Source of the DNA: Candidatus Omnitrophota bacterium | Lineage (GTDB): Bacteria > Omnitrophota > Gorgyraeia > JABMRG01 | NCBI GenBank assembly: GCA_030593065.1 | Contig: JAUVHV010000002.1 | Coordinates: 104,098-168,097, forward strand | Direction of reading: 5' to 3' | DNA: 64,000 bases | Shown: one piece after another, positions 26,693-64,000 of the stretch | How positions within the stretch are numbered: position 1 is the first letter of the stretch | Layout of the letters: every line of letters starts with the position of its first letter | Notes under the pieces: generated by a model | What the model was told of the DNA's origin: nothing | The model's input: the letters and a program-made list of their open reading frames with translations, nothing else | Database searches by the model: none | Position numbers and translations under genes: made by a program

Positions 26693-27535
26693 TTATTTAT
26701 GTAAAGAGCTAAGAGCCTCAGATAAGCAGGCAAATTTCTCCAAATTCAGATCTTCTGCTCTAATATTGCTATCTAAGCCAGAGATCTCAAACGCTTTTTC
26801 CAAAAGGCGCCTATCGATAGATATAATACCACCTTTGCAGAGCGCGTTAAAGAAAGTTTTTCGGCGCCGGTTAAAACCTGCTTTCATGATCATGAAAAAG
26901 AGTCTCTCATCCCTGACATTTACCGGGGGTTTTTTTCTTATCATAAGAGATAGAAATATTGAATCTACTGAAGGTACAGGAAAAAAACACCCTTTAGGAA
27001 TAGCGCAAAGTTTTAAAGGTTGGCAGTAATACTGAACATTCAAACTTAAAAGGCCATAATTCCTGTTACCGGGAGCGCTTAATATGCGTTGGGCAACATC
27101 CTTTTGAACTGTAATAAAAATCGAACTTATATTATCTCTATTTTTAAGCAGATGAAATATAATCGGTGAGGTTATATAGTAAGGCAGGTTTCCAATCACT
27201 TTAATTTTGCTTGATAAAGCAGGCAGGGGGTATTTCAGAATATCCATGTTTAAGATCTCAAGCCCCTTACTTTCCTTGTAAAAACTCTTGAGGATATTTA
27301 CAAGGCCTCTATCCTTTTCTATAGCAATTAATCTTGAGCATCCGGGTAAAATGGATTCTGTAAGAGCGCCGAGGCCAGGGCCTATCTCAAGCACCAAATC
27401 AGTACTTCTCATACCGCACAGGCTGATCATTCTGTCTCTTTTACCTTTATCAATAAGAAAATTCTGGCCAAACCTCTTGTTGATACACAGGTTATTTTTG
27501 CTTATTAACTCTTTTATCTGATGGGGATTATACAT
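26693..27535 (-). CDS. rsmA: 16S rRNA (adenine1518/1519-N6)-dimethyltransferase
   Basis: 280 aa; RFGQNFLID motif and EIGPGLGALT SAM site. Confidence 0.9.
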   Translation of the reverse strand: MYNPHQIKELISKNNLCINKRFGQNFLIDKGKRDRMISLCGMRSTDLVLEIGPGLGALTESILPGCSRLIAIEKDRGLVNILKSFYKESKGLEILNMDILKYPLPALSSKIKVIGNLPYYITSPIIFHLLKNRDNISSIFITVQKDVAQRILSAPGNRNYGLLSLNVQYYCQPLKLCAIPKGCFFPVPSVDSIFLSLMIRKKPPVNVRDERLFFMIMKAGFNRRRKTFFNALCKGGIISIDRRLLEKAFEISGLDSNIRAEDLNLEKFACLSEALSSLHK

Positions 27536-28544
27536 TTTTGGGAATAGATAACTTAACAGCTTCTCTTATGGCCTGTTTCATGCTTCCGGAATCAGCTTTT
27601 CCATATCCTGCTATATTAAGCGCTGTCCCATGGCCGGGAGATGTGCGTATAAAAGGCAAACCCAGAGTAATGTTCACGCATTGGTTACGGCCTATCATCT
27701 TGAGCGCGACCAGGCCCTGGTCATGATACATACAGAGTACAGCATCATAATCGCCCTTTAACAGGCCATAGAAAAGTCCGTCCGCAGATAAGGGGCCGTT
27801 AATATTCAGGCCTTTTGCTTTTGCAAGCTTAATAGCGGGGATTATAATTCTCTTCTCTTCATCACCGATCAATCCACTCTCACCTGCATGAGGATTTAAA
27901 CCGCACACCGCTATCTTGGCCCTCTTCACTCTATTGTAATACCTAAGATGGTAATCCGCCAGCAAGAGCTTATCTACTATCTCTTTGGATTGTAATCTGC
28001 GTGATACATCTTTTATGGGAATATGTGTTGTAGCCAGAATAACCTTAAGCGGGCCTGCCGTAAGCATCATAGCATACTTTTTAGTCTTTGTAAGATAGGC
28101 CAGGTATTCTGTATGGCCGGGATATTTAAAACCTGAAAGCTCCGCTGCATGCTTATGAATAGGCCCTGTAATAAGCAACCCTGCTTTTTTTGCCTGAATC
28201 AATGAAACCGCTTTATCAATATAAGATATAGACGCCCTGCCGTAATCCGGCGATACTTTTCCAAAAGAAAAACTATTGCCGGATATATTTGAGAGAGCAT
28301 AAAAGAGTATATTGCTTACTGAAAAATCTATATCACTATCACGCTCTATTACATGATAATTTAATCTCTTTTGGGTTCGCTTTAAGGCTTTCTTAAATAC
28401 AGGCTCATCTCCTATGATTAAAAAATTGGCAAGCCTTTTTATGCCCGGGCTTGCCAATGACTCTGATATAATCTCAGGCCCTATACCAGCTGGATAACCC
28501 ATGGTTATACAGGCTAAAGGCCTATTTGATTCTAATATATGCAT
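27528..28544 (-). CDS. pdxA: 4-hydroxythreonine-4-phosphate dehydrogenase
   Basis: 338 aa; PdxA family (GYPAGIGPEII; HTEYLA). surA-pdxA-rsmA synteny. Confidence 0.85.
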   Translation of the reverse strand: MHILESNRPLACITMGYPAGIGPEIISESLASPGIKRLANFLIIGDEPVFKKALKRTQKRLNYHVIERDSDIDFSVSNILFYALSNISGNSFSFGKVSPDYGRASISYIDKAVSLIQAKKAGLLITGPIHKHAAELSGFKYPGHTEYLAYLTKTKKYAMMLTAGPLKVILATTHIPIKDVSRRLQSKEIVDKLLLADYHLRYYNRVKRAKIAVCGLNPHAGESGLIGDEEKRIIIPAIKLAKAKGLNINGPLSADGLFYGLLKGDYDAVLCMYHDQGLVALKMIGRNQCVNITLGLPFIRTSPGHGTALNIAGYGKADSGSMKQAIREAVKLSIPKNV

Positions 28545-29502
28545 CCTTTTTCAACTTACCTATAAATTCTCTCAATGTTAATTCAGACTCTCTCTGGTAT
28601 AATCTTTCCCTTATCATATCTTTTACTTCAGAAAGCGGGACAGTTCCCGCTTCTTTCTTGTCAATAACCTTTATTATATAAAATCCCGTGTCTGTCTTTA
28701 TGATACCGGATGTATCACCTGCATCAAGCAACTCAATCTGGTCATCCAGCTCCTTTATAATACCGCCTGCCGGCACATAGCCCATATCCCCACCCTTATC
28801 AATATTAGGCCCCTGTGAAAATTGTTTAACAAGCATATCAAAATTCTGGCCATCATTTATCCTGCCTAAGATTTGCAATACAATCTTTTGGGTTTTAGCC
28901 ATGCTGCTATCAGGTAAAGGTTTGACCAAAAGCACCTTAAACCTCGCCATCTTTGGCACTGAAAAATCCTTGATGTTCCCGTTATAATACGCCGCGATCT
29001 CGGTTGGGCTGATATTTACATTTGTGTTGATCAGGCCCCTGACCAGGTTCCGCATCATAATCTGCTCTTTATACTTCTCCTTAAGCCTTGCCATGGTTAT
29101 GCCAGAATCCTTTATTGCCAGATAAAATTCTTCTTCGCTATTGAATCTTTTTTTTACATGTTCAAGGCGCTCTTTAATCTCGGAATCGCCCGCTGCTATT
29201 TTCCTCTTTTTAGCTTCTTGCAGAATAAGCCTTTCTTCTATTAAACGGTTAAGAGCATCCTGCCTTACCTCACCCATCTTACCTTCCAGCTCCCCTTCCT
29301 CATACCGCAGCTTATAATCCGCGATAAATGGGAGCATGGATTCCTGAAGCTCGCTCTGAGTTATAACATCTTCATCAACAACAGCTACAATCCTGTCGAT
29401 AACTTGAGCAGCAGTAACTACAGCTGCCCGCATACAGATAACCATGCATAATGGAAGCCCTAAACAAGCTATAACCCTTAAAACCATTTTCCTATTTATC
29501 AT
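28522..29502 (-). CDS. surA: SurA-like periplasmic chaperone / peptidyl-prolyl isomerase
   Basis: 326 aa; signal peptide, SurA N-domain-like helical region, and a parvulin domain (GGDMGYV...GFYIIKV). Confidence 0.75.
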   Translation of the reverse strand: MINRKMVLRVIACLGLPLCMVICMRAAVVTAAQVIDRIVAVVDEDVITQSELQESMLPFIADYKLRYEEGELEGKMGEVRQDALNRLIEERLILQEAKKRKIAAGDSEIKERLEHVKKRFNSEEEFYLAIKDSGITMARLKEKYKEQIMMRNLVRGLINTNVNISPTEIAAYYNGNIKDFSVPKMARFKVLLVKPLPDSSMAKTQKIVLQILGRINDGQNFDMLVKQFSQGPNIDKGGDMGYVPAGGIIKELDDQIELLDAGDTSGIIKTDTGFYIIKVIDKKEAGTVPLSEVKDMIRERLYQRESELTLREFIGKLKKDAYIRIK

Positions 29503-30374
29503 TCATTGCCTTTTTGAACGGGTTGCCCTATCACATCCTCTTTCCTTTCAAGAGAAGATAGAAGTTTATCATTTATTGATATCTTTGCCTTCTCTTTAAG
29601 CTTATCTGTAAACTCATCAAATCTTTGCCGTTGCCGATCTCTGATTATAGATGTCCTTACAGTATCCTTCACCTCATCAAAACTCTGGTATACTGCTGGT
29701 TTACGCTCTGTAAGCTTGATTATATGATATCCAAATCTTGTCTTTATAATACCGCTCGTCTGGCCTACATTAAGGCTAAACGCGGCTTTTTCAAACTCAG
29801 GTATCATCTGATCTCTACCAAAATAACCGAGGTCTCCGCCCCTGTCTTTAGTAAGATCTTTAGAATATTGCTTTGCAACCGCAGCAAATCCCGCTCCTCT
29901 ATCTAATTCCCCTTTTGCCGCCTCCGCTTCCTCTTCGGTACTGGTCAGAATATGCGAAGCCCTAACCGTCTCCGGTACCATATATTTTTCCTTATTTTCC
30001 TCATAATATATCTTTACATCATCCTCAGAGACAGGTGTACTCTTTTTTGCTTCTTCTTCAATAACCCTTGAAATAAGTATCTTTTTTGTAGCATCATTTA
30101 TAAGTTCTTTTATATCAGGGTCAAGATTCAATTTCCGCTTTCTTGCTTCATCATACAACAACTTTTCCACTATCATCTCGTTTACTATCTCTTTTTTATG
30201 CTGTACAGCAAACGTCTGATAATATTTTGGGAGCTTCTCTATCTTGGCTTCTATCATGGATAAGGTAATAGGCACTCCATTTACAGTAGCGACTACATCC
30301 CCCGTCTCTTTTTTCGCGCAGCCGGATACTACACTGATAGATAATATCATAAAAATCAAAACCCATCTCTTCAT
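29499..30374 (-). CDS. Peptidyl-prolyl cis-trans isomerase (parvulin/PpiC-type, PrsA-like lipoprotein)
   Basis: 291 aa; lipoprotein-like signal (VVSGC); parvulin motif (SHILT...GGDLGYFGRDQM...GYHIIKL). Confidence 0.78.
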   Translation of the reverse strand: MKRWVLIFMILSISVVSGCAKKETGDVVATVNGVPITLSMIEAKIEKLPKYYQTFAVQHKKEIVNEMIVEKLLYDEARKRKLNLDPDIKELINDATKKILISRVIEEEAKKSTPVSEDDVKIYYEENKEKYMVPETVRASHILTSTEEEAEAAKGELDRGAGFAAVAKQYSKDLTKDRGGDLGYFGRDQMIPEFEKAAFSLNVGQTSGIIKTRFGYHIIKLTERKPAVYQSFDEVKDTVRTSIIRDRQRQRFDEFTDKLKEKAKISINDKLLSSLERKEDVIGQPVQKGNE

Positions 30375-30490
30375 GCATACCTCCTTTTAATATTACATTG
30401 TATATAAGTTTAAGTATTATATCATATAGCTACCACCTGCTCAAGCAAAATCGAGATTAATCCGCATTAACTCATAATTAAAGGTTACTA

Positions 30491-30900
30491 GCAGCCAGCT
30501 TTTGAGCAATTTCGCAGAAGCACAAAATTTTTCCCTGCGAGAAAATTTTGCTCCGTTTTTTTGCTCTCTCCCACTGCTATTTTACTTTGTAAAACAGCAG
30601 TGGTCCATGCCCGTTCGCAAAAAAGAGGTTCTGCTCCATTACTCAAAAAGCTGGCTTTCAGAACGGTTCTTAATTAAAACCACACTTGCAAAACTATGCC
30701 AAGGTTTGCTAACTAAGGGAGAGTTTTGTTGCAACTGGAGCGGGACTTTGGTGGTGCGAGCGGGCAAGGTTCGCCCTGATTAAGTCATATGCGAGAGCGA
30801 GCGCCAACTCGGAGTGAAATTCCCACGCTGGGGGAATTTCACGTTCCTGCGAAAGTTGCTACGAAACTCTCAGCTTAGATGAAGGTAGCGGATAAGGAAT
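30491..30900. repeat. Mosaic GC-rich intergenic repeat, copy A (modules shared with copies at 56296-56715 and 62512-62722)
   Basis: About 150 nt of 30700-30900 is the reverse complement of 56320-56530 at roughly 90% identity. Palindromes at 30520-30552 and 30814-30842 share arms and loop with the hairpin at 56401-56430. Confidence 0.8.
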
Positions 30901-30916
30901 CATAGATAACGTTTGA

Positions 30917-32836
30917 TTATGAGCTGACTGGAAGTTTCCTTCCGGCTTTATGTTCGTTTATGGTGTTTCGCAAGAGCCTGCAATAGAGGTCAAATCCTAC
31001 AGCGGCAATATATCCATGCTGTTGGGTCCCTAATATATTGCCGGCACCCCTTATCTGAAGGTCTTCCATAGCTATCTTAAAACCTGAACCCAGTTCTGTA
31101 AAACGTCCTACAGCCTTGAGCCTTCTCTTTGCGTCTCCTGCAAGCGGGTAATTCTTTGGCACCAGGCATATCGCGTAAGCTTTTATATTAAACCTGCCTA
31201 CCCTGCCTCTAAGCTGATAAAGATCTGCTAAACCAAACCTATCCGCGTGATTTATAATAATAGTATTTGCATTCGGTATATCTATACCTGATTCGATAAT
31301 AGTTGTAGAGACCAAGACATCTATTTCACCTTTTATAAACTGGAGCATTATCTTTTCAAGCTCTTTAGCCGGAATCTTACCGTGGGCAACAGAGATACGT
31401 ACACTCTCTCCCATAAGCGCCTTTAGTCCTAACACGATCTTCTCTATCCCCTTAATCCTATTATTCACAAAAAAGACCTGGCCTCGCCTTTTAAGCTCAC
31501 GCTCAATAGCTTCTTTAATCAGCTTATCGTTATATGAACTTATAATAGTCTTGATAGGAAGCCTGTCAAGGGGTGGTGTGTTGATTGCGGACATATCTCT
31601 TGCACCGGTAAGCGACATGTATAGCGTACGCGGTATAGGTGTAGCTGTCATTGTAAGGACATCTATAAGAAGCCTGATCTTTTTCAATTTCTCTTTTGCC
31701 TTTACGCCAAAACGCTGTTCCTCATCTATAATTACGAGCCCGAGATCCTTAAATACTATATCATCCGACAAAAGCCTGTGTGTTCCTATTACAATATCGA
31801 CAGAACCCTCTTTCAACCCCTTCAAAACCTCTTTCTGTTCAGATTTTGTCTTAAAACGTGAAAGCATCTGTATATTTACAGGAAACTCCTTCATTCTTTC
31901 GCAAAATGTATTATAATGCTGTTCCGCCAATATAGTAGTAGGAACTAATATACCAACCTGCTTGTTATCCATTACAGCCTTGAATGCGGACCTTAAAGCA
32001 ACTTCCGTCTTACCATAACCTACGTCACCACATAAGAGCCTATCCATAGGCTTTGGCTTTTCCATATCAGAGATTACGTCAGAAACGGCCTTTGCCTGAT
32101 CGATCGTATCTCTATAAGGAAAACTTTCTTCCAGTTTATATTGCCAATCAGTATTTTTGGAGAAAGCAAAACCCTTGAGTTTCATTCGATCTGCCTGCAT
32201 CTGAAGCAGTTCCATTGCATAAGAGGCTGCTATCTTCTTGGTCTTCTGTTTTAATCTTTTCCAGGAACCTGTTCCCAGCTTGCTCAGTCTTGGAACACAC
32301 TTATAAAAACTTAAATATTTTTGTATAAGATTTATCTCCCCGACAGGCAAATACAACTTATCTCTATCCGCGTACTCGATTAGAATATAATCTTTCTCAT
32401 GGCCACTCTTTTCCTTTATTTTCTTTATGCCTTTGTATATACCTATACCATAATCAATATGTACGACTAAATCGCTAATCATTATATCAACAAAGTTATC
32501 TATAGGCACCTCTTCTCCCATACCGTGAAATATAGCGGGCTTGGCAGAAGAGTGTAATGTTTTTCTTGGAAGTATTATTACCATCTGGTGGACAGAAGTA
32601 ATCTCAGAAGTGACCAGGCTAAAAGATCGTATAGAATGAACCTTATCCTGAAAAAGCTCTAATCGCACAGGAGACTCAAAGCCGCTGGGAAAGATATCGA
32701 TAATCCCTCCCCTGTGCGCAAAGTCTCCTTCCTGCGCTACAAAATCTGTTATCTTATAACCCAGCAGGATTAAATCTTTAAGAAGCGGTTCTTTCTCCTG
32801 GTTTTGATTGGTATAAAGCTTGGCCGATTTAAACAT
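30917..32836 (-). CDS. mfd: Transcription-repair coupling factor (Mfd) homolog; short form lacking the N-terminal UvrB-homology region (D1a/D2 side) and the C-terminal D7
   Basis: 639 aa. Contains RGGIIDIFP...RLELF (UvrB-like motif), a CarD/TRCF RNAP-interaction domain (VVHIDYGIGIYKG...KLYLPVGEINL), SF2 helicase motifs (GDVGYGKTEVALR; DEEQRFGV; TATPIPRTL; QLRGRVGR) and a TRG region. Only 45 bp separate it from argS. Confidence 0.75.
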   Translation of the reverse strand: MFKSAKLYTNQNQEKEPLLKDLILLGYKITDFVAQEGDFAHRGGIIDIFPSGFESPVRLELFQDKVHSIRSFSLVTSEITSVHQMVIILPRKTLHSSAKPAIFHGMGEEVPIDNFVDIMISDLVVHIDYGIGIYKGIKKIKEKSGHEKDYILIEYADRDKLYLPVGEINLIQKYLSFYKCVPRLSKLGTGSWKRLKQKTKKIAASYAMELLQMQADRMKLKGFAFSKNTDWQYKLEESFPYRDTIDQAKAVSDVISDMEKPKPMDRLLCGDVGYGKTEVALRSAFKAVMDNKQVGILVPTTILAEQHYNTFCERMKEFPVNIQMLSRFKTKSEQKEVLKGLKEGSVDIVIGTHRLLSDDIVFKDLGLVIIDEEQRFGVKAKEKLKKIRLLIDVLTMTATPIPRTLYMSLTGARDMSAINTPPLDRLPIKTIISSYNDKLIKEAIERELKRRGQVFFVNNRIKGIEKIVLGLKALMGESVRISVAHGKIPAKELEKIMLQFIKGEIDVLVSTTIIESGIDIPNANTIIINHADRFGLADLYQLRGRVGRFNIKAYAICLVPKNYPLAGDAKRRLKAVGRFTELGSGFKIAMEDLQIRGAGNILGTQQHGYIAAVGFDLYCRLLRNTINEHKAGRKLPVSS

Positions 32837-32881: not shown

Positions 32882-34558
32882 TTACATCTCCTCAGGGCAA
32901 GATACGCCTAAGAGCGCGAGAGCTTTTGAAAAGACAACTTTAAGCGATTCAATAAGAACCAAACGCGCGGATGTGAGGTTAGCGTCATCACTTACAACAC
33001 GGTGTTTTGAATAAAAAACATGGAAAGCGGCTGCCAGCTCCATAAGGTATGATATAAGCCTATGCGGTTCCATATCTTGTGCCGACTCTTCTAATATTTC
33101 AGGAAACTCTCTCAATATCCTCAGAATACTCAGTTCTTCTTCTGCATGGAGTAATTCCAGGGTTTTACCCTTATCTTTACCTATACCCTGTTTATTCTTA
33201 TGCTCTAGTATGCCGCAGATCCTGGCATGAGCATACTGTATATAATATACAGGGTTTTCCATAGACTCCTTCTTGGCAAGTTCAAGATCAAAATCAAGAT
33301 GACTGTCTCTACGTCTTGTCAAAAAGAAGAATCTTGTCACATCTTTACCTACCTCATCTATTACCTGGCGCAAGGTTATGAATTCTCCTTCCCTGGTAGA
33401 CATGCGTACAGGCACGCCTGATCTTGAAAGAGTAACAAGTTGAATTATCAAAATAGATAATAGATCCTTATCTTTACCTATCGCCTGGCATGCGGCCTTT
33501 ATTCGTGGTATATAACCATGGTGATCCGGGCCCCAGAGGTTAATAAGCATATCAAAACCTCTCTTAAACTTATCTTCATGATAAGCAATATCTGGTGTAA
33601 TATATGTATAAGACCCATCGCTTTTACGCAAAACCCTGTCTTTATCATCGCCAAATCTTGTGGAAGAGAACCAAAGAGCCCCATCCTTTTCATACAAAAA
33701 CCCTTTCTCTTTAAGATGTGTTAAAGCTTTTTCTACCTTTCCTGACCTGCTAAGCTTATGTTGTGAATAATAGTTATCAAATCTTACGCTAAAATCTGAC
33801 AAATCTTTTCTAATACCGTCCATTATGTACTTTATGCCAAAATCACGGAAAAAAAAGATATTTTTATCATCAAGTGCTACTAAAGCCTTATTATGTTTTT
33901 CTATAACAACCTTTGCAATATCATATATATAATCTCCCTTATACCCTGCTTCAGGAAAGAGGCAAGCCTCTCCAAGCAATTCACAGTATCTCGCATGGAT
34001 AGATCTTCCAAGAAGCTCTATCTGGTTTCCTTCGTCATTAAGATAATATTCTCTTGCTACTTTATAACCCGCAAATTCCAAAATATTAGCAAGCACATCA
34101 CCTATAGCGGCCTGCCTCCCGTGGGCTATGCTTAAAGGCCCCGTTGGGTTAGCGCTGACAAACTCTATTAAGACTTTTTTACCTTTACCCTGTATGCTTC
34201 GCCCAAAACCGATGCCTTCAGATATTATCCGGTCAATAACATCATGAAGATAGTTATTTGAAAAGCGAAAGTTTATAAAACCCGGAGGCTTTACTTCAAC
34301 CGTGAAAATATTCTCTTTAAAACCGGTTTTCTCAATACCTTCTTTTATAAGCTTTAGAACCTCTTCCGCTACCTCAAGAGGTTTCAGTCCTTTTTTAGCC
34401 TTACAGATCTGCATAGCAATATTGGTAGATAGATCCGCAAGCTTTCTGTTTCTAGGCACCTCAAGCATAATCTCTGGTACATGCTTTATAGCCAATTTAC
34501 CAGCTACGTTGTAAACAGCGGTCTTTATGATACCAATTAACTGAAACTTAATATCCAA
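32882..34558 (-). CDS. argS: Arginine--tRNA ligase
   Basis: 558 aa; class I HIGH-type (ANPTGPLSIAHGR); anticodon-binding DALR domain at the C-terminus. Confidence 0.92.
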   Translation of the reverse strand: MDIKFQLIGIIKTAVYNVAGKLAIKHVPEIMLEVPRNRKLADLSTNIAMQICKAKKGLKPLEVAEEVLKLIKEGIEKTGFKENIFTVEVKPPGFINFRFSNNYLHDVIDRIISEGIGFGRSIQGKGKKVLIEFVSANPTGPLSIAHGRQAAIGDVLANILEFAGYKVAREYYLNDEGNQIELLGRSIHARYCELLGEACLFPEAGYKGDYIYDIAKVVIEKHNKALVALDDKNIFFFRDFGIKYIMDGIRKDLSDFSVRFDNYYSQHKLSRSGKVEKALTHLKEKGFLYEKDGALWFSSTRFGDDKDRVLRKSDGSYTYITPDIAYHEDKFKRGFDMLINLWGPDHHGYIPRIKAACQAIGKDKDLLSILIIQLVTLSRSGVPVRMSTREGEFITLRQVIDEVGKDVTRFFFLTRRRDSHLDFDLELAKKESMENPVYYIQYAHARICGILEHKNKQGIGKDKGKTLELLHAEEELSILRILREFPEILEESAQDMEPHRLISYLMELAAAFHVFYSKHRVVSDDANLTSARLVLIESLKVVFSKALALLGVSCPEEM

Positions 34559-51452: not shown

Positions 51453-53693
51453 ATGAAAAAATTGCCCTATATGGCTGCTTTCCTGGTGGGCGTAAATGCC
51501 CTATTAAGCCAGGTAATGATTATAAGAGAGCTTCTGGTAAATTTTTCCGGCAATGAACTCTCTATGGGAATTATTATTGCCACATGGCTTGTTGGCGCGG
51601 CAATAGGCAGCCTTGTCTTAGGGCGCTATTTTATTGAAAAGATAAAAACACCCACATATACCTTTTCCATACTACTTTTAGTAATATCAGCGCTAATTCC
51701 AATCAGCATCTTCCTGTCCAAAACCGTAAGATACATGTTCCAAATACCCATATATGAGACTCTGGGGCCATTACATATGCTTTCGATATGCGCGATACTG
51801 CTCTTGCCTCTATCCGGGCTGCTTAGTTTCTGCTTTATATTATCCTGCAAAATGCTAAAAATCGCTGTCTCAAAAAATAATACCCCTGGTACCACTTATA
51901 TGCTGGAAGCGCTTGGAGCAACCGCGGCCGGCGCGGTCTTCACATTCCTGCTTATAATATACTTTAATCATTTCCAGATAGCCTTAGGCCTAATATTTAT
52001 AAATATTCTATTTGCCTCATACATTGCTTGCAGAAAAAAGTTTTTCCTCTATCTCCTGCTGTCAATTTTTATTGCTGTTTTTTCGGCAAACAGCATAAAA
52101 TGGCTGCAAAAAATATCAGAAACACTGCAATGGCACCCCTATGAAGTGGTATATTACGCAAGTTCTCCATATGGCAATATAAGCGTCACAAAATCAGCCG
52201 ATACATTCAATGTTTACGAAAACGGCGCCTTGCTATTTACCACTCAGGATGAGGTCTTTAATGAAAACTTTTCGCATCTAGTAATGTTACAGCACTCTGC
52301 TCCAAAGAATGTGCTTCTTTTAGGCAACGGCATAGGTGGAATATTAAGGCAGATACTTAAACATAACCCCCAATCTTTAACATATCTCCAACTCGATTCG
52401 GAAATTTTAAGAGCAAGTAAAAAGTTCCTGCCGCAGAAAGAGAAAAATATTCTTTCAGACCCGCGCCTTAAAATAATACATGAAGATGCGGGTTTTTTTA
52501 TAAAAAGGACAAAAGAGAGGTTTGACCTGATAATAATAAATATGCCGGATCCCGTTACGCTTAGCATTAACCGTTTTTACACAAAGGAGTTCTATGAAAT
52601 AGCCCGTTCCCATCTTAAAAAAGGCGGTATACTGGCTACGCGCATCTCATCCAAAGAGTCTATAATAAGCAATGAGCTGGCCAGGTATAACGCATCTGCT
52701 TACAATACCCTTAAGAACGTATTTCACTATGTAGAGTGCATACCCGGTGAAAACCTTATCTTCATAGCTTCCGATGACTTAAATATTACAACAGATAGGC
52801 CTGAAATCTTAGTAGAAAGATTCAGCAAAAGAGCTATCAAGACAGATTTCCTTACAGAATACCATATAAGAGACAGATACTATCCGGACATGCTAAACTA
52901 TCTCGCAGGCCAGCTTGAAAAAGGGCGTAGAGATGCCGGTATCAATACAGATTTTCATCCTATCTGCTTCTACTACGGCTTTATCCTCTGGAACATTAAA
53001 TTTCAGCCGCATATAGCGGGGCTGTTTAATTCTATTGTACAGATAAACATCTTAGGCATAATCTGTATAATGATTCTGTTTTTTTTATGGGGGCTTTTTG
53101 CAATCAGATTTAAAAAAGATTCTGCGGTCTATTTTATACGTTCCGCGATAGCTGTAAGCGGAGCAGCTGGTATTACTCTCGAAATTATAATATTACTCTC
53201 TTTTCAAATAAGTTATGGGTACGTATATAGCAAGGTAGGATTTTTAATAGCGCTCTTTATGCTGGGGCTGGCATCGGGAAGCTATATCATAAATCAGAGA
53301 TTATATAAATTCAAAAATCTGCACAATCTGCTCTGCGGGATAATACTGATATTCTGCTTGTATATAACCTTAGCGCCTCTGATTATAAGGTTTGCGGCAT
53401 CGATACCCCTGCAAGCTTCTGAGTATATATTCTATCTTATGATACTTATAACCGGTATGTTTACGGGATGCCAGTTTCCTGTTGCAGTGGCATTACTGCA
53501 AAAAAGATATTCGCCAAGCTATTCTGCGTCGATTATATGGGGATCTGATCTTCTGGGCGCGGCAACAGGTGTACTTATATCAAGCCTTATAATCATTCCT
53601 GTTCTCGGAATGTTTACTGCCTGCTTCATAGCCGCGACATTCTGCGCAATAAGCCTTATCCTGCTTCTTTTTCGCCAAAGACTTCAGCGCTAA
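51453..53693 (+). CDS. Fused polytopic membrane / spermidine synthase-like (class I SAM-dependent aminopropyltransferase fold) protein
   Basis: 746 aa; about 7 N-terminal TM segments, a central spermidine-synthase-like core (LLLGNGIGG...DLIIINMPDP...), and further C-terminal TM segments. Confidence 0.7.
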   Translation: MKKLPYMAAFLVGVNALLSQVMIIRELLVNFSGNELSMGIIIATWLVGAAIGSLVLGRYFIEKIKTPTYTFSILLLVISALIPISIFLSKTVRYMFQIPIYETLGPLHMLSICAILLLPLSGLLSFCFILSCKMLKIAVSKNNTPGTTYMLEALGATAAGAVFTFLLIIYFNHFQIALGLIFINILFASYIACRKKFFLYLLLSIFIAVFSANSIKWLQKISETLQWHPYEVVYYASSPYGNISVTKSADTFNVYENGALLFTTQDEVFNENFSHLVMLQHSAPKNVLLLGNGIGGILRQILKHNPQSLTYLQLDSEILRASKKFLPQKEKNILSDPRLKIIHEDAGFFIKRTKERFDLIIINMPDPVTLSINRFYTKEFYEIARSHLKKGGILATRISSKESIISNELARYNASAYNTLKNVFHYVECIPGENLIFIASDDLNITTDRPEILVERFSKRAIKTDFLTEYHIRDRYYPDMLNYLAGQLEKGRRDAGINTDFHPICFYYGFILWNIKFQPHIAGLFNSIVQINILGIICIMILFFLWGLFAIRFKKDSAVYFIRSAIAVSGAAGITLEIIILLSFQISYGYVYSKVGFLIALFMLGLASGSYIINQRLYKFKNLHNLLCGIILIFCLYITLAPLIIRFAASIPLQASEYIFYLMILITGMFTGCQFPVAVALLQKRYSPSYSASIIWGSDLLGAATGVLISSLIIIPVLGMFTACFIAATFCAISLILLLFRQRLQR

Positions 53694-56205
53694 ATATATA
53701 TATATCACACCCCTTGTTTTTCCAGCTGTCTCGAGATAATCCTGCCTTATGCATACACAGAGAATCCATAAACTCTTCTCTGCTCCAGCCTGTCTCAACA
53801 GCTACCTGCGGAAGATACACACCACTTTTGAACCCGCTTCTTATCAGCACACCGTGTTTACCCATAATAATCTCATCAGGGCTATCTATCTTCTTAAGCG
53901 GTGAAAGAACCGATACCTCTATATCTATATCCTCAAGTTCTTTTGGGCCTACAGGCGAAAATCTCGGATCCTGTGTACCTGCCTGTATAGCCATGTCACT
54001 AACTGTCTGATAGAGCGGCCCCTTACCTATAATATTACCTATACATCCTCGCAAATGCCCATTCTTATGCAACGTGACAAATACCCCCATCTCTTTGTTT
54101 AAAATCGGATTATCCTCATTGATAACCAGCTTCTCGCCATTATCTACATAGGCCTTGAGCGTCTCTCTTGCAATCTGAAGAAGGCGTTTTTTCTCTTCCG
54201 CATTAAGTAGTTCTTCCATATTTTTCTCCACTTTATGTTTTTCTATTACCTGATGATCATCGGCCAATAATTTATAAATTACAGCAGAGGCATATCCCAC
54301 AACAGCGCTGCCATCACCTGTTACATCAGCTGATGTCGTGTATCTGAGTATACTGATCTTATCAGCTCCCAACTTACGCGCTGCCATCATAGCACCGATT
54401 ATAGCTGTGCTCCCGCATGGCTTCTCTTTACCCGGCATTTTGGAAAGCTTTAAAAACAGCTCTTCAGGATTAAATTTCTTGATCTCATCCAGGACAGCGG
54501 AATCTATAATACGTGCTCTCTTATCAGAATTGTAATGAGACATATCACTGCTGGCAATAATAACTATATCTTTTCTCTCTCCTATCACGGCGTAGAGCGC
54601 GTCACGTAAAAGCGTACATGTATCATATGAGCTGTTGCCTGTCAGGATAAGAACTATCCTTGCCTTAGGCAGTGATTCCTGCACAAATGGTATCTGGGTC
54701 TCTGTTGAATTTTCATTTAAAAATGGCTTGTTATAATAATTTACGTTTTTATTAAAAGAGAAGAGTCTCTGGGTTACATCCCTATCTATGGCCACCTTTC
54801 CAAGCGGAGTAAGATAAAAATCCTTATCAAGTACGGCTATCCCTTCGAAAGAATGGCGGTGGCTTGGAGCAACAATAATTGCTGTATTAAATCCTTTATC
54901 TTTAATAGCCTTGAAGCCGTAACCCGCGGCTTCTCCAGAGTACCTAAAACCTGCATGCGGTGATATAATAGCAATTATATCACCAGCTATCAGTTCAGGT
55001 TCTGCATTACCGATAAAATCGCCTACTACTTCCTTAAGTACCGCGGGATCTTTGGGATAAAAAGAGCCTGTAAGCGACGGCTCCTGTATATCTTCCGCAT
55101 CTTTCCATATACCTGCAATCTCTTTTTGGCAATATTTGCATTTTCCGCTTTCTATATTGTTTTCCACAACATTATACCCTAATCGTTTTATCAAAAGTTT
55201 TTTGCAACCAGGGCAATATGTAGATTCACCCTTGCTACCTGGTATATTACCGATATAAACATAATTAAGCCCCGCGGATACAGCTATATTATACGCGGCT
55301 TTCAGGGCAGATACCGGTGTCGGAGAAATATTCTTAAGCTTATACATTGGCCAGAAACGTGAGATATGCAAAGGTGTATCAGGGCCAAGATTTTCCTTTA
55401 TCCATAGGCATGTCTCTTTTATATAATCAGGATTATCATTTATAGTAGGTATTAGAAGATAAGTAATCTCAAGCCACACGCCTTCTTCCTTCAATATCCG
55501 TAAAGTGCGCAGTACATCTTCTCTGTTCCCAAGGCAGAATTCATTATAGAATCTATCTGAACCCTTGAGATCTACATTGGCGGCATCCATATATTCGCAC
55601 AACTGCCTTAAAGGTTCTTCACTTATAAAACCGCATGAATGCATTACATTCATTATGCCTGCCTGATGCGCCAATTTTGCTGTATCTAACATATATTCAT
55701 AAAAGATTGTGGGTTCAGTATAGGTATATGCGATACTTGGGCAGTTATTCGTATTAGCAAGCATCACTACTCTTTCAGGCGGTACATCTTCATAAGGAAC
55801 ATCTTCAGGCCAGGCTTGAGATATCTGCCAATTCTGGCAGAACTTACATTCAAGGTTACACCCTGCGGTTGCTATGGAGAATGATTTCGTACCCGGAAGA
55901 ACATGGAATAATGGCTTCTTTTCAATAGGGTCAACATGAAGAGCGCATGGCTTTGCATATACAAGGCTATATAGCACTCCATCCCTGTTCTCTCTCACCC
56001 GACAGAAACCTCTCTTCTTATTCGGAATAATACATTTGCGAGGGCATAACAGGCAACCCACTCTCTTATCATCCAGTCTCTGGTAATAAAGCGCTTCTTT
56101 CAGTTCCGGTCTTTGGGCTAAAACATTCGAAGCAAGATATGATAATGATTGGCATAACAGGAGTATCGCGACAAGAATTGACACAGATATAAATATCTTT
56201 TTCAT
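53656..56205 (-). CDS. AmmeMemoRadiSam system triple fusion: radical SAM enzyme (AmrS) + Memo-like protein (AmrB) + AMMECR1-domain protein (AmrA), with N-terminal hydrophobic anchor
   Basis: 849 aa uninterrupted ORF. AmrS part: CPRKC...GFC N-terminal Cys cluster plus CNLECKFCQNW (Cx3Cx2C). Middle CPGCKK...CKYC zinc-ribbon-like linker. Memo part: IISPHAGFRYSGEAAGYGF. AMMECR1 part: HLRGCIGNI...DPRF. N-terminus MKKIFISVSILVAILLLC is hydrophobic. Confidence 0.82.
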   Translation of the reverse strand: MKKIFISVSILVAILLLCQSLSYLASNVLAQRPELKEALYYQRLDDKRVGCLLCPRKCIIPNKKRGFCRVRENRDGVLYSLVYAKPCALHVDPIEKKPLFHVLPGTKSFSIATAGCNLECKFCQNWQISQAWPEDVPYEDVPPERVVMLANTNNCPSIAYTYTEPTIFYEYMLDTAKLAHQAGIMNVMHSCGFISEEPLRQLCEYMDAANVDLKGSDRFYNEFCLGNREDVLRTLRILKEEGVWLEITYLLIPTINDNPDYIKETCLWIKENLGPDTPLHISRFWPMYKLKNISPTPVSALKAAYNIAVSAGLNYVYIGNIPGSKGESTYCPGCKKLLIKRLGYNVVENNIESGKCKYCQKEIAGIWKDAEDIQEPSLTGSFYPKDPAVLKEVVGDFIGNAEPELIAGDIIAIISPHAGFRYSGEAAGYGFKAIKDKGFNTAIIVAPSHRHSFEGIAVLDKDFYLTPLGKVAIDRDVTQRLFSFNKNVNYYNKPFLNENSTETQIPFVQESLPKARIVLILTGNSSYDTCTLLRDALYAVIGERKDIVIIASSDMSHYNSDKRARIIDSAVLDEIKKFNPEELFLKLSKMPGKEKPCGSTAIIGAMMAARKLGADKISILRYTTSADVTGDGSAVVGYASAVIYKLLADDHQVIEKHKVEKNMEELLNAEEKKRLLQIARETLKAYVDNGEKLVINEDNPILNKEMGVFVTLHKNGHLRGCIGNIIGKGPLYQTVSDMAIQAGTQDPRFSPVGPKELEDIDIEVSVLSPLKKIDSPDEIIMGKHGVLIRSGFKSGVYLPQVAVETGWSREEFMDSLCMHKAGLSRDSWKNKGCDIYIFSAEVFGEKEAG

Positions 56206-56295: not shown

Positions 56296-56715
56296 TATGA
56301 TCTCTTCTGCCTTCTCTAAGCTGAGAGTTTCGCTGCAACTTCCTCAGGAGCGACCGAGGACGAAATGTCCAAGGGAGTGCCGAGAGCTCCGCGAACGACC
56401 GTGAAATTTTTCCCTGCGAGAAAATTTCACTCCGAGTTGGCGCTCGCTCTCGCGTAGAACTCAATCAGGGCGAACCATGCCCGCTCGCACCACCAAGGTC
56501 CCGCTCCAGTTACTACAAAACTCTCTCTTAGTTAGCAAATCTAAATATGGCTTTCGGGCATTTCGTCATCGGTAGTTTCGCGGAGGATAGCTGGTAAGAA
56601 TATCTCTTATGCCTTTGCCTTTTAGCAGCGCTTTGGATTTTTTTGCTACGAACGTAAATAGACGGCAAAAATACCTGCGCTGCGAAGGCAGAAGGCAGAA
56701 GAGATTGCAGGTGAT
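56296..56715. repeat. Mosaic GC-rich intergenic repeat, copy B
   Basis: 56320-56530 is the reverse complement of copy A (30700-30900) with an extra roughly 57-nt module. 56560-56710 is the reverse complement of 62512-62640 in copy C at roughly 85% identity. Perfect 10-bp hairpin at 56401-56430. Confidence 0.8.
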
Positions 56716-62724: not shown

Positions 62725-64000
62725 TCACTTAGCCATTACTTTTCTGAGATAGGCTCCTGTATAGGAATATCTGTTTTTGGAGATTTCGGAAGGAGAACCA
62801 CAGGCAACTATCTTACCGCCTTTTTCACCGCCTTCCGGGCCTAAGTCTACAATATAATCCGCGGACTTTATCACATCAAGATTATGTTCTATAACCAATA
62901 CCGTATTACCCTGGGTAACTAACCTATTTAAAACCGATAAGAGCTTACTTACATCCGCAAAATGTAACCCGGTAGTAGGCTCATCCAGGATATATAGAGT
63001 TCTGCCTGTTGCCGATTTTGAAAGTTCTGTCGCCAGTTTTATTCTTTGAGCCTCACCGCCGGAAAGAGTTGTAGCGGGCTGGCCAAGTTCAATGTAACCT
63101 AAACCAACATCAGAAAGAGTCTTCAATTTTTTACGTATAGGGGGGATATTAGCGAACAGCTCTAAGGCATCATCAACAGCCATCTCTAACACATCTGATA
63201 TAGACTTACCCTTATATCTTACCTCAAGCGTCTGATGATTAAAACGTTTTCCCTTGCAAGCCTGGCACTGGATATAAACATCCGGAAGAAAATGCATCTC
63301 TATTTTCTTTACTCCATCACCCTCGCAAATTTCACACCTACCACCTTTAACATTAAAACTAAACCGGCCTGCTTTATATCCCCTTATCTTTGATTCAGGA
63401 AGTTTGCTGAATAGATCTCTTATATGGCTAAAAGCACCTGTATAGGTCATGGAGTTGGAACGCGGCGTACGTCCTATAGGCGCCTGATCCACAACTATTA
63501 CCTTATCTATATGCTCACTTCCTAAAATCGTTTTATGCTTGCCTGGGACTTGAGTTGAATTATAGAATTTTCTCGCAAGTGCCCTGTAGAGTATCTCATC
63601 TACTAATGTAGATTTTCCCGAACCGGAAACACCTGTTACACAACTGAATATACCCAAAGGCAAAGAGACATCAATCCCTTTTAGGTTGTGCTCACTCGCT
63701 TCTTTAATAATAAGTTTCTTTCTATTTTTATAATCTCTGGGATTACCAGATGAGGCTACTATCAAGCTGCCGTTTAAATACTTTGCGGTCAGGGAAGCCT
63801 TATTTTTAAGAAGGCCTTTTATTCGGCCGCTATATATAAGCTCCCCGCCGAATTTTCCGGCGCCAGGGCCTAAATCCACAACAAAATCCGCGCTTCTGAT
63901 CATAGCCTCATCATGCTCTACAACAAGAATAGTATTACCAAGATCGCGCAAAGCCTTAAGCGTAGAAAGAAGCTTGAAATTATCCTTCTGGTGAAGGCCT
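62725..64000 (-). CDS. uvrA: Excinuclease ABC subunit A; C-terminal portion only, the gene continues beyond the window end
   Basis: Second ABC ATPase module and zinc finger (CEICEGDG; [12 protein letters not shown]; [10 protein letters not shown]). The N-terminal half lies off-window; the ORF-track Met at 63951 is internal. Confidence 0.9.

Follow-up and report, generated by a model that had tools for sequence, protein, structure and literature searches.

Work on the transcription-repair coupling factor Mfd centers on a clamp in which D2:D7 contacts, together with D1-D3, keep the motor repressed and the UvrA-binding face covered as long as the protein is not yet loaded on a stalled polymerase. 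UvrA is bound by D2, where R165, R181, and F185 are important for the interaction; in apo-Mfd, the two arginines lie buried against D7 (PMC3025350, PMC13453472). The ATPase and translocase of Escherichia coli Mfd are derepressed when either D7 or domains 1-3 are removed. For strand-specific repair the UvrB-homology module is essential and D7 is dispensable, in that Mfd without D7 still supports transcription-coupled repair (PMC3025350). The RID, as anchor, together with TD1/TD2 and the relay helix in its unfolded state, makes the processive wrap on DNA (PMC7864632). Here we describe a gene, which we call compact mfd, in a window of 64 kb (the whole stretch of DNA analyzed) from a Candidatus Omnitrophota genome. 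It encodes a half-size Mfd that consists of D2, RID, and motor and has lost all parts known to hold the motor off.

Reduced or derepressed Mfd proteins have been described before, both engineered and natural. The engineered E. coli truncations (Smith 2007; Murphy 2009; Manelyte 2010) resemble the compact Mfd in their loss of D7 or of the D1/D3 half of the clamp, whereas the compact Mfd unites both deletions yet keeps D2, and does so by evolution and clade-wide; this combination, both deletions with D2 retained, was not found in the literature examined. The Mfd proteins of Buchnera aphidicola, Wigglesworthia glossinidia, and the Arabidopsis chloroplast are likewise naturally reduced (PMC3488230, PMC13453472), but they have lost D1 and D2 and retain D7 along with the hook-relay interface, and they are found in settings that lack UvrABC. 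The compact Mfd is their mirror image, with D2 kept, D7 lost, and uvrA present. The Mfd of Thermus thermophilus (978 amino acids [aa]; PDB 6M6A, 13JQ) is also shorter, and a report describes it as constitutively derepressed, its clamp being open and dynamic (PMC13453472). Its core matches the compact Mfd with an expectation value (E) of 1e-149; however, it keeps D1a-D2-D1b, D3, and D7, whereas D1a, D1b, D3, and D7 are physically missing from the compact Mfd. A 2026 study found T. thermophilus Mfd to be largely non-autoinhibited and autoinhibition to be weak in Thermus (PMC13453472), and Smith et al. (2012) considered a permanently activated Mfd unlikely in cells (PMC3488230). The Omnitrophota protein is a candidate counter-example to the latter view. 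No link between Mfd or transcription-repair coupling and Omnitrophota or Omnitrophica appeared in the literature searched. Databases already annotate the gene as transcription-repair coupling factor, and what is new is the architecture and its implications, not the family assignment; the pathway inventory is unchanged and no new system is added.

Domain architecture of the compact Mfd

The gene and the segments of its product are located as follows (pLDDT, predicted local distance difference test).

30917..32836, minus strand: compact mfd gene, 639 codons plus stop (stop codon 30917-30919), ATG start; based on the list of open reading frames (ORFs), TIGR00580, Mfd matches in the PDB, and the AlphaFold2 model
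32561..32827, minus strand: D2 (UvrB_inter / UvrA-binding), residues 4-92, equivalent to E. coli 134-213; based on PF17757, the match to 4dfc_A, and pLDDT of ~80-92
32486..32560, minus strand: flexible linker, residues 93-117, in place of E. coli D1b plus D3 and the D3-D4 linker; based on pLDDT and low conservation
32276..32479, minus strand: D4 / RID, residues ~120-187, equivalent to E. coli 479-545; based on PF02559 (CarD_TRCF_RID) at 122-175, E=3.1e-17
32180..32269, minus strand: relay helix, residues ~190-219, equivalent to E. coli 548-577; based on a predicted helix at 191-219 and the E. coli alignment
31571..32173, minus strand: TD1 (D5), first RecA-like lobe, residues 222-422; based on Pfam DEAD at 247-405
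30935..31570, minus strand: TD2 (D6) with motif VI, TRG motif, and hook helices, residues 423-634; based on Pfam Helicase_C at 442-550

Several lines of evidence identify the product as Mfd. It scores 876.1 bits against TIGR00580, the NCBIfam mfd equivalog (cutoff 800), and 629.8 bits against NF007966/PRK10689, the model of full-length, E. coli-type Mfd, which lies below that model's cutoff of 1329. The best matches among solved structures are the Mfd proteins of Mycobacterium smegmatis, E. coli, Mycobacterium tuberculosis, and T. thermophilus (E 1e-149 to 1e-172). The claim of an earlier note, made from the sequence, that a 639-aa ORF lying 45 nt from argS encodes an Mfd homolog is thus borne out by the ORF list, by TIGR00580, and by the PDB matches. 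Pfam places UvrB_inter at residues 7-92 ahead of the RID, DEAD, and Helicase_C domains listed above (Helicase_C ending at 550). An AlphaFold2 model (mean pLDDT 78; predicted template modeling score 0.66) superimposes on Mfd crystal structures, among them that of M. smegmatis Mfd, with a TM-score of 0.75 normalized to the query. The protein carries the Walker A, Walker B, motif VI, and TRG signatures of an SF2 translocase. RecG is the nearest SF2 relative of its motor and shares the TRG motif, but RID and D2 belong to Mfd and not to RecG. All RecG equivalog models score far below their cutoffs (best 410.8 bits versus 718) and align only with residues 183-619, that is, with the motor.

Alignment of the compact Mfd to E. 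coli Mfd by BLASTP and phmmer yields two collinear blocks, in which residues 11-90 correspond to E. coli 134-213 and residues 112-634 to E. coli 471-991, the latter with 48% identity. The same pair of blocks, at positions 141-232 and 484-1006 of 1163, emerges with a profile made from 31 full-length Mfds, namely that of E. coli and 30 from other phyla. No part of the compact Mfd aligns to E. coli 1-133 (D1a) or 214-470 (D1b plus D3), and the module homologous to UvrB (D1a-D2-D1b) is therefore incomplete. Only 3 residues precede D2 and about 25 separate it from RID, the internal loss of D1b and D3 amounting to ~255 aa. D2 itself is complete, since residues 7-92 span positions 3-89 of the 91-position UvrB_inter model PF17757 (E=2.8e-18). 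It also matches 4dfc_A, the Mfd D2 chain crystallized with UvrA in PDB 4DFC (E=6.9e-10), and UvrB domain 2, with scores of 55 bits against UvrB domain 2 and up to 58 bits against D2 of full-length Mfds. As these scores are nearly equal, they lend no particular support to the idea, considered and dropped, that D2 came back into the protein from UvrB. The linker that follows is predicted to be disordered, with pLDDT below 50 at residues 94-106 and 113-115. Beyond it, the RID matches the RID-only PDB chains 6yhz_A and 3mlq_E, and the relay helix is delimited by the boundaries given for E. coli (PMC7864632). At the C terminus two helices are predicted (598-613 and 615-633), and the protein stops 5 residues past the equivalent of E. 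coli residue 991, with no match to D7 (Pfam TRCF, PF03461).

These results revise the picture drawn in the earlier note at the N-terminal side. It was right that the protein ends without D7. At the other end D1a (E. coli 1-133) is gone, but the note's placement of the start within the UvrB-like region, with all that precedes RGGIIDIFP absent, does not hold, because D2 is kept whole. Its summary as RID plus translocase core names two parts that are indeed present, but it omits the retained D2 and overlooks the internal loss of D1b and D3 (E. coli 214-470). The alignment to E. coli Mfd that the note had proposed for mapping the boundaries upholds the absence of D7 and corrects the N-terminal boundary, the retained segments being 134-213 and 471-991.

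An in-frame TAG at 32848-32846, four codons (12 nt) 5' of the ATG, precludes any N-terminal extension, and the ATG start is further supported by the family-wide conservation of M1, F2, K6, and Y8; the C-terminal end is kept too. Compared with canonical Mfd (E. coli, 1148 aa; PDB 2EYQ, 6X26), the compact Mfd has the RID and relay helix, a full complement of SF2 motifs in TD1/TD2, and the TRG motif and hook, as well as D2 with the equivalents of R165 and R181, but it lacks D1a, D1b, D3, and D7. It can therefore have no D2:D7 clamp, no repositioning of D1-D3 during loading, and no masking of the UvrA surface (PMC7864632).

Retention of D2 and probable coupling to UvrA

We counted residues over 40 members of the compact Mfd family, taking the roles of E. 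coli residues from PMC7864632, and expressed the conservation of segments as mean pairwise identity. The ATPase and DNA-contact residues of the motor are intact: all 40 members have K276 (Walker A), D371/E372 (Walker B), N459, R327, R545/R548 (motif VI), and R596 and Q606 (TRG/DNA contacts), and 39 have R572. In E. coli numbering R545 is R902, R548 is R905, R572 is R929, R596 is R953, and Q606 is Q963. In the RID, the equivalent of E. coli L499 is I140, and the position is hydrophobic (L/V/I/M) in 38 of the 40; the L499 contact is phylum-specific according to Westblade et al. (PMC3001067). Pairwise identity is 46% in D2, 29% in the linker, the lowest value of all, 56% in RID, 75% in TD1, and 64% in TD2. 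As judged from these alignments, D2 is under visible constraint (46% versus 29% in the adjoining linker). Within it, R42 (E. coli R165) is R in 35 members and K in 2, and R58 (E. coli R181) is R in 39 and K in 1. Their conservation cannot reflect the clamp interface, because there is no D7, which leaves UvrA binding or fold stability.

A presumed partner for D2 lies at the right edge of the window.

62725..64000, minus strand: 3' part of uvrA, presumed partner of D2, cut by the right window edge

By tblastn, E. coli UvrA 518-940 matches window positions 63999..62734 on the minus strand (423 codons, 56% identity, E=5e-151). The uvrA gene reported for this window by the earlier note is thus present, but only as its C-terminal 423 codons. 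The 408-aa, TTG-started ORF listed at 62725-64000 on the minus strand is a window-edge artefact and in reality the 3' part of uvrA.

Taken together, we think it probable that the gene is a clamp-free mfd ortholog in which D2, leashed to RID and motor, still recruits UvrA. The parts that form the wrap (RID, relay helix, and TD1/TD2) are all kept. We hypothesize that RID binds a stalled RNA polymerase at its beta-protrusion and that TD1/TD2, loaded on the duplex upstream, drive the polymerase forward and off, as canonical Mfd does. D2 would hang from RID on the disordered linker, its UvrA-binding face permanently exposed, or always unmasked, because no D7 is present, and would hand the site to UvrA2B. 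The motor would be constitutively derepressed, like that of engineered E. coli Mfd without D7 or without D1-D3, since both halves of the clamp (D1-D3 and D7) are gone. By analogy with these truncations this is a reasonable inference, and the constitutively active motor that the earlier note had envisaged remains plausible on the E. coli data (PMC3025350, PMC3488230). Because the repositioning of D1-D3 and the unmasking of D2 seen in E. coli cannot occur, discrimination between paused and stalled complexes must rely on something else; specificity for stalled complexes might rest on the RID contact, the hook-relay interface, the expression level, or a further factor.

Several points weigh against this reading. 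The conservation of R42 and R58 could reflect what the UvrB_inter fold needs and not contact with UvrA. Binding of UvrA by D2 without the D1a/D1b scaffold is deduced from sequence, and F62, the equivalent of F185, is variable (D in 8, S in 5, V in 5, and F in 3 of the 40). The UvrB/Mfd-binding domain of this organism's UvrA belongs to the N-terminal half, which falls beyond the window edge; a homology search with the C-terminal fragment gave partial UvrAs only, and PF17760 (UvrA_inter) was found in just two of them (P0154 and P0206), which are 69-70% identical, in the range of named Omnitrophota UvrAs. With regard to the family, the tree that unites the short forms is a neighbor-joining tree of the D4-D6 core without bootstrap support values, and a metagenome-assembled genome (MAG) labeled 'Candidatus Omnitrophica' (P0262) encodes a full-length Mfd of 1112 aa with a TRCF/D7 domain, its gene likewise having a surA-like gene after it. 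Lastly, our searches for remnants extended over the 64 kb here and up to 10 kb of flank in relatives.

One alternative, which the earlier note proposed, is that the motor is active but does not recruit UvrA. Its sole task would then be to clear or terminate transcription, on the pattern of the Buchnera and Wigglesworthia Mfds that lack the UvrB-homology module. The loss of D1a and D1b, which leaves the UvrB-homology module incomplete, and the poor conservation at the F185 equivalent agree with this possibility, and natural Mfds uncoupled from repair are known where UvrABC is lacking (PMC3488230, PMC13453472). Nevertheless, we consider it unlikely. The only known roles of D2 are the binding of UvrA and of D7, and it has been selectively kept although both of its flanks were deleted and D7 is gone; it is more conserved than the linker, with the equivalents of R165 and R181 retained. 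Moreover, uvrA is present in this genome, unlike those of Buchnera and Wigglesworthia, and the endosymbiont Mfds show the opposite pattern, in which D1 and D2 were lost and D7 was kept.

It is also conceivable that D2 has been repurposed, either as a new intramolecular regulator that takes over from D7 by docking on TD2 or the hook, or as an accessory contact to DNA or RNA polymerase, in which case its conservation would say nothing about UvrA. Three observations lend this some substance: the UvrA-binding face of D2 lies against DNA in loading state L2 of E. coli (PMC7864632), the F185 equivalent has drifted, and replacement regulation is plausible if a permanently active Mfd is as unlikely as Smith et al. 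deemed it (PMC3488230). However, a linker with predicted disorder and poor conservation suits a tethered module better than a docked one, and there is no sign of a new interface in the compact Mfd. We therefore regard repurposing as improbable and continue to favor a leashed D2 that recruits UvrA.

On that reading, the compact Mfd is the outcome of a natural deletion series in which every clamp component was removed and D2, RID, and motor were spared, the same minimal set that E. coli truncations found necessary for strand-specific repair. A broader proposal, which we advance tentatively and with less assurance than the reading itself, is that a clade within Omnitrophota runs transcription-coupled repair with a minimal factor of leashed D2, RID, and motor and no clamp at all. 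If true, D2 alone would be sufficient in vivo for the hand-off of lesions to UvrA2B, the multi-step, ATP-consuming unmasking of E. coli would be a lineage-specific refinement and not a core requirement, and a permanently open Mfd would either be tolerated or be checked by an undescribed mechanism. While the field debates whether autoinhibition is universal, a natural minimal coupling factor would be useful. The 639-aa protein is probably soluble, and it could serve to ask whether a tethered D2 is enough for hand-off to UvrA, whether kinetic proofreading occurs without D1-D3 and D7, and how cells tolerate an unmasked UvrA-binding site.

Distribution and origin of the short form

The short form is a family and not a solitary gene. 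The best 120 clusters at 90% identity, which are 57-100% identical to the query, are 617-664 aa long, save for one 549-aa fragment, and the named clusters among the listed matches are from Candidatus Omnitrophota/Omnitrophica, usually under the name 'transcription-repair coupling factor'. Candidatus Kappaea frigidicola (Omnitrophota), a GTDB representative genome, has a 641-aa form. At greater distance the short form becomes rare: when 1.84 billion representatives at 50% identity were searched exhaustively, 2 of the 150 best are short (642 and 640 aa) and the other 148 are 983-1332 aa. We also compared 80 genomes from other phyla among the matches listed, a set that is not a phylum census, as one Omnitrophota genome stood among those matches. 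Where it is not cut by contig ends, mfd in these 80 genomes encodes 1083-1365 aa, the lone exception being an 826-aa call in locus L039.

In the D4-D6 tree, all short forms fall in one clade, including that of Kappaea and the two divergent representatives. The nearest full-length sequences come from candidate division NPL-UPA2 (P0241), Candidatus Auribacterota (P0285), and the MAG P0262. The best explanation is that the reduced form arose once in an Omnitrophota lineage. Because P0262 carries a full-length Mfd, the short form is widespread yet not universal under the Omnitrophica label. P0262 and P0414 (loci L088, L089, and L090) may have kept the ancestral form in a basal lineage, or the taxonomic label may be loose.

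The position of the gene suggests that it was reduced in place. In Omnitrophota the short mfd is followed by one or two surA/prsA-like isomerase genes, pdxA, and rsmA (window 26693-30374); the E. coli operon surA-pdxA-ksgA contains the same genes as this run. Full-length mfd, too, has a surA-like gene on its 3' side in many unrelated phyla (loci L007-L083; Bacillota, Acidobacteriota, Desulfobacterota, Planctomycetota, Actinomycetota, and others), as well as in the P0262 lineage. This shared neighbor indicates that the short gene is the positional mfd ortholog, reduced in place, and not an extra paralog.

Five related loci were checked, with protein identities of 95% (L085), 76% (L086), 58% (L087), and 53% (L005) and an identical gene on a short-read contig (L004). 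All five show the same two profile blocks and junctions, and six-frame searches with the full-length Mfd hidden Markov model, filters off, found no other Mfd-like segment near the gene in any of them. The same search of the window found no remnant of D1a, D1b, D3, or D7, everything else having E ~1 or worse and fewer than 4 bits, and tblastn with E. coli Mfd found nothing in the window beyond the compact mfd ORF. In L087 there is no room for fragments, since the flanking genes lie 35 nt upstream and 25 nt downstream of the short mfd. Thus, the view of the earlier note that this is a natural truncation, neither a pseudogene nor a gene split between adjacent fragments, is upheld by at least 120 clusters of 617-664 aa and by the shared junctions and missing fragments at the five loci.

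The short gene could nonetheless be a piece of a split system or an extra paralog, with a full-length mfd or separate D1, D3, or D7 elsewhere in the genome. The extent of the searches given above leaves space for this idea, and the full-length Mfd of P0262 shows that such a gene occurs under the Omnitrophica label. We judge it to have a low probability, comparable to that of a repurposed D2. Not only are fragments missing from the window and from the five related loci, but the short gene also stands in the very slot, ahead of a surA-like gene, that full-length mfd takes up in the P0262 lineage and in other phyla, which suggests alternative states of one locus and not coexisting copies. In addition, the short forms make up one clade apart from P0262, and mfd is normally a single-copy gene.

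That the gene is a pseudogene, a truncated gene call, or an assembly artefact, as a repeat inserted in the downstream spacer and the break of the short-read (Logan) contig with the identical gene 125 nt past the stop codon might suggest, is effectively refuted: the same length and junctions recur in at least 120 independent clusters from many samples and assemblers, purifying selection is strong (75% pairwise identity in TD1), the start (M1, F2, K6, and Y8) and the end are conserved, and the contig breaks past the stop codon, inside the dispersed repeat.

Downstream spacer and other features of the window

The gene upstream of mfd is argS.

32882..34558, minus strand: argS, ending 45 nt upstream of mfd

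The guanine-plus-cytosine (GC) content of the window is ~40%, GC skew is uniformly negative, and almost all of the long ORFs lie on the minus strand.

The spacer between mfd and the surA-like gene is 540 nt long and holds an insertion of ~290 nt at 30552-30842 (core 30702-30846). The insertion is missing from the relative at 95% protein identity, in which the spacer is 272 nt. A 146-nt part of it has a second, inverted copy at 56397-56542, which is intergenic and 87.7% identical, and the short-read contig with identical mfd breaks inside the insertion. It has the look of a small dispersed repeat, which may resemble a miniature inverted-repeat transposable element. A remnant of D7 in this spacer was considered and rejected: the extra length is the ~290-nt insertion with the dispersed repeat, and the spacers of relatives are 25-272 nt. 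As RNA, the insertion repeat folds with z = -2.75, and Rfam found no match in the window and spacer save for one tRNA. A hairpin motif, GAAATT(YY)C-NCGCN-GGG(RR)AATTTC, occurs three times (30816-30840, 30525-30549, and 56404-56428), with none expected by chance. Two of the copies differ by compensatory stem changes from CCC/GGG to TTT/AAA, which suggests that the structure of the hairpin is conserved.

Immediately upstream of the surA-like gene, at 30416-30444 on the minus strand, is a promoter-like site of the extended -10 type that is close to consensus (TTGAGC, 17-nt spacer, TG, TATAAT). The site aligns in L085 and L086, with TTGAG identical in both and a -10 element of TATAAT in L085 and TAGAAT in L086. 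Because the site is aligned in relatives, the surA-like gene and the genes after it probably have their own promoter and would not be read through from mfd.

Elsewhere in the window, an 849-aa ORF at 53656-56205 on the minus strand fuses all three AmmeMemoRadiSam components in one polypeptide, with the radical SAM enzyme at residues 40-371, the MEMO-like protein B at 375-643, and the AMMECR1-like protein A at 674-843.

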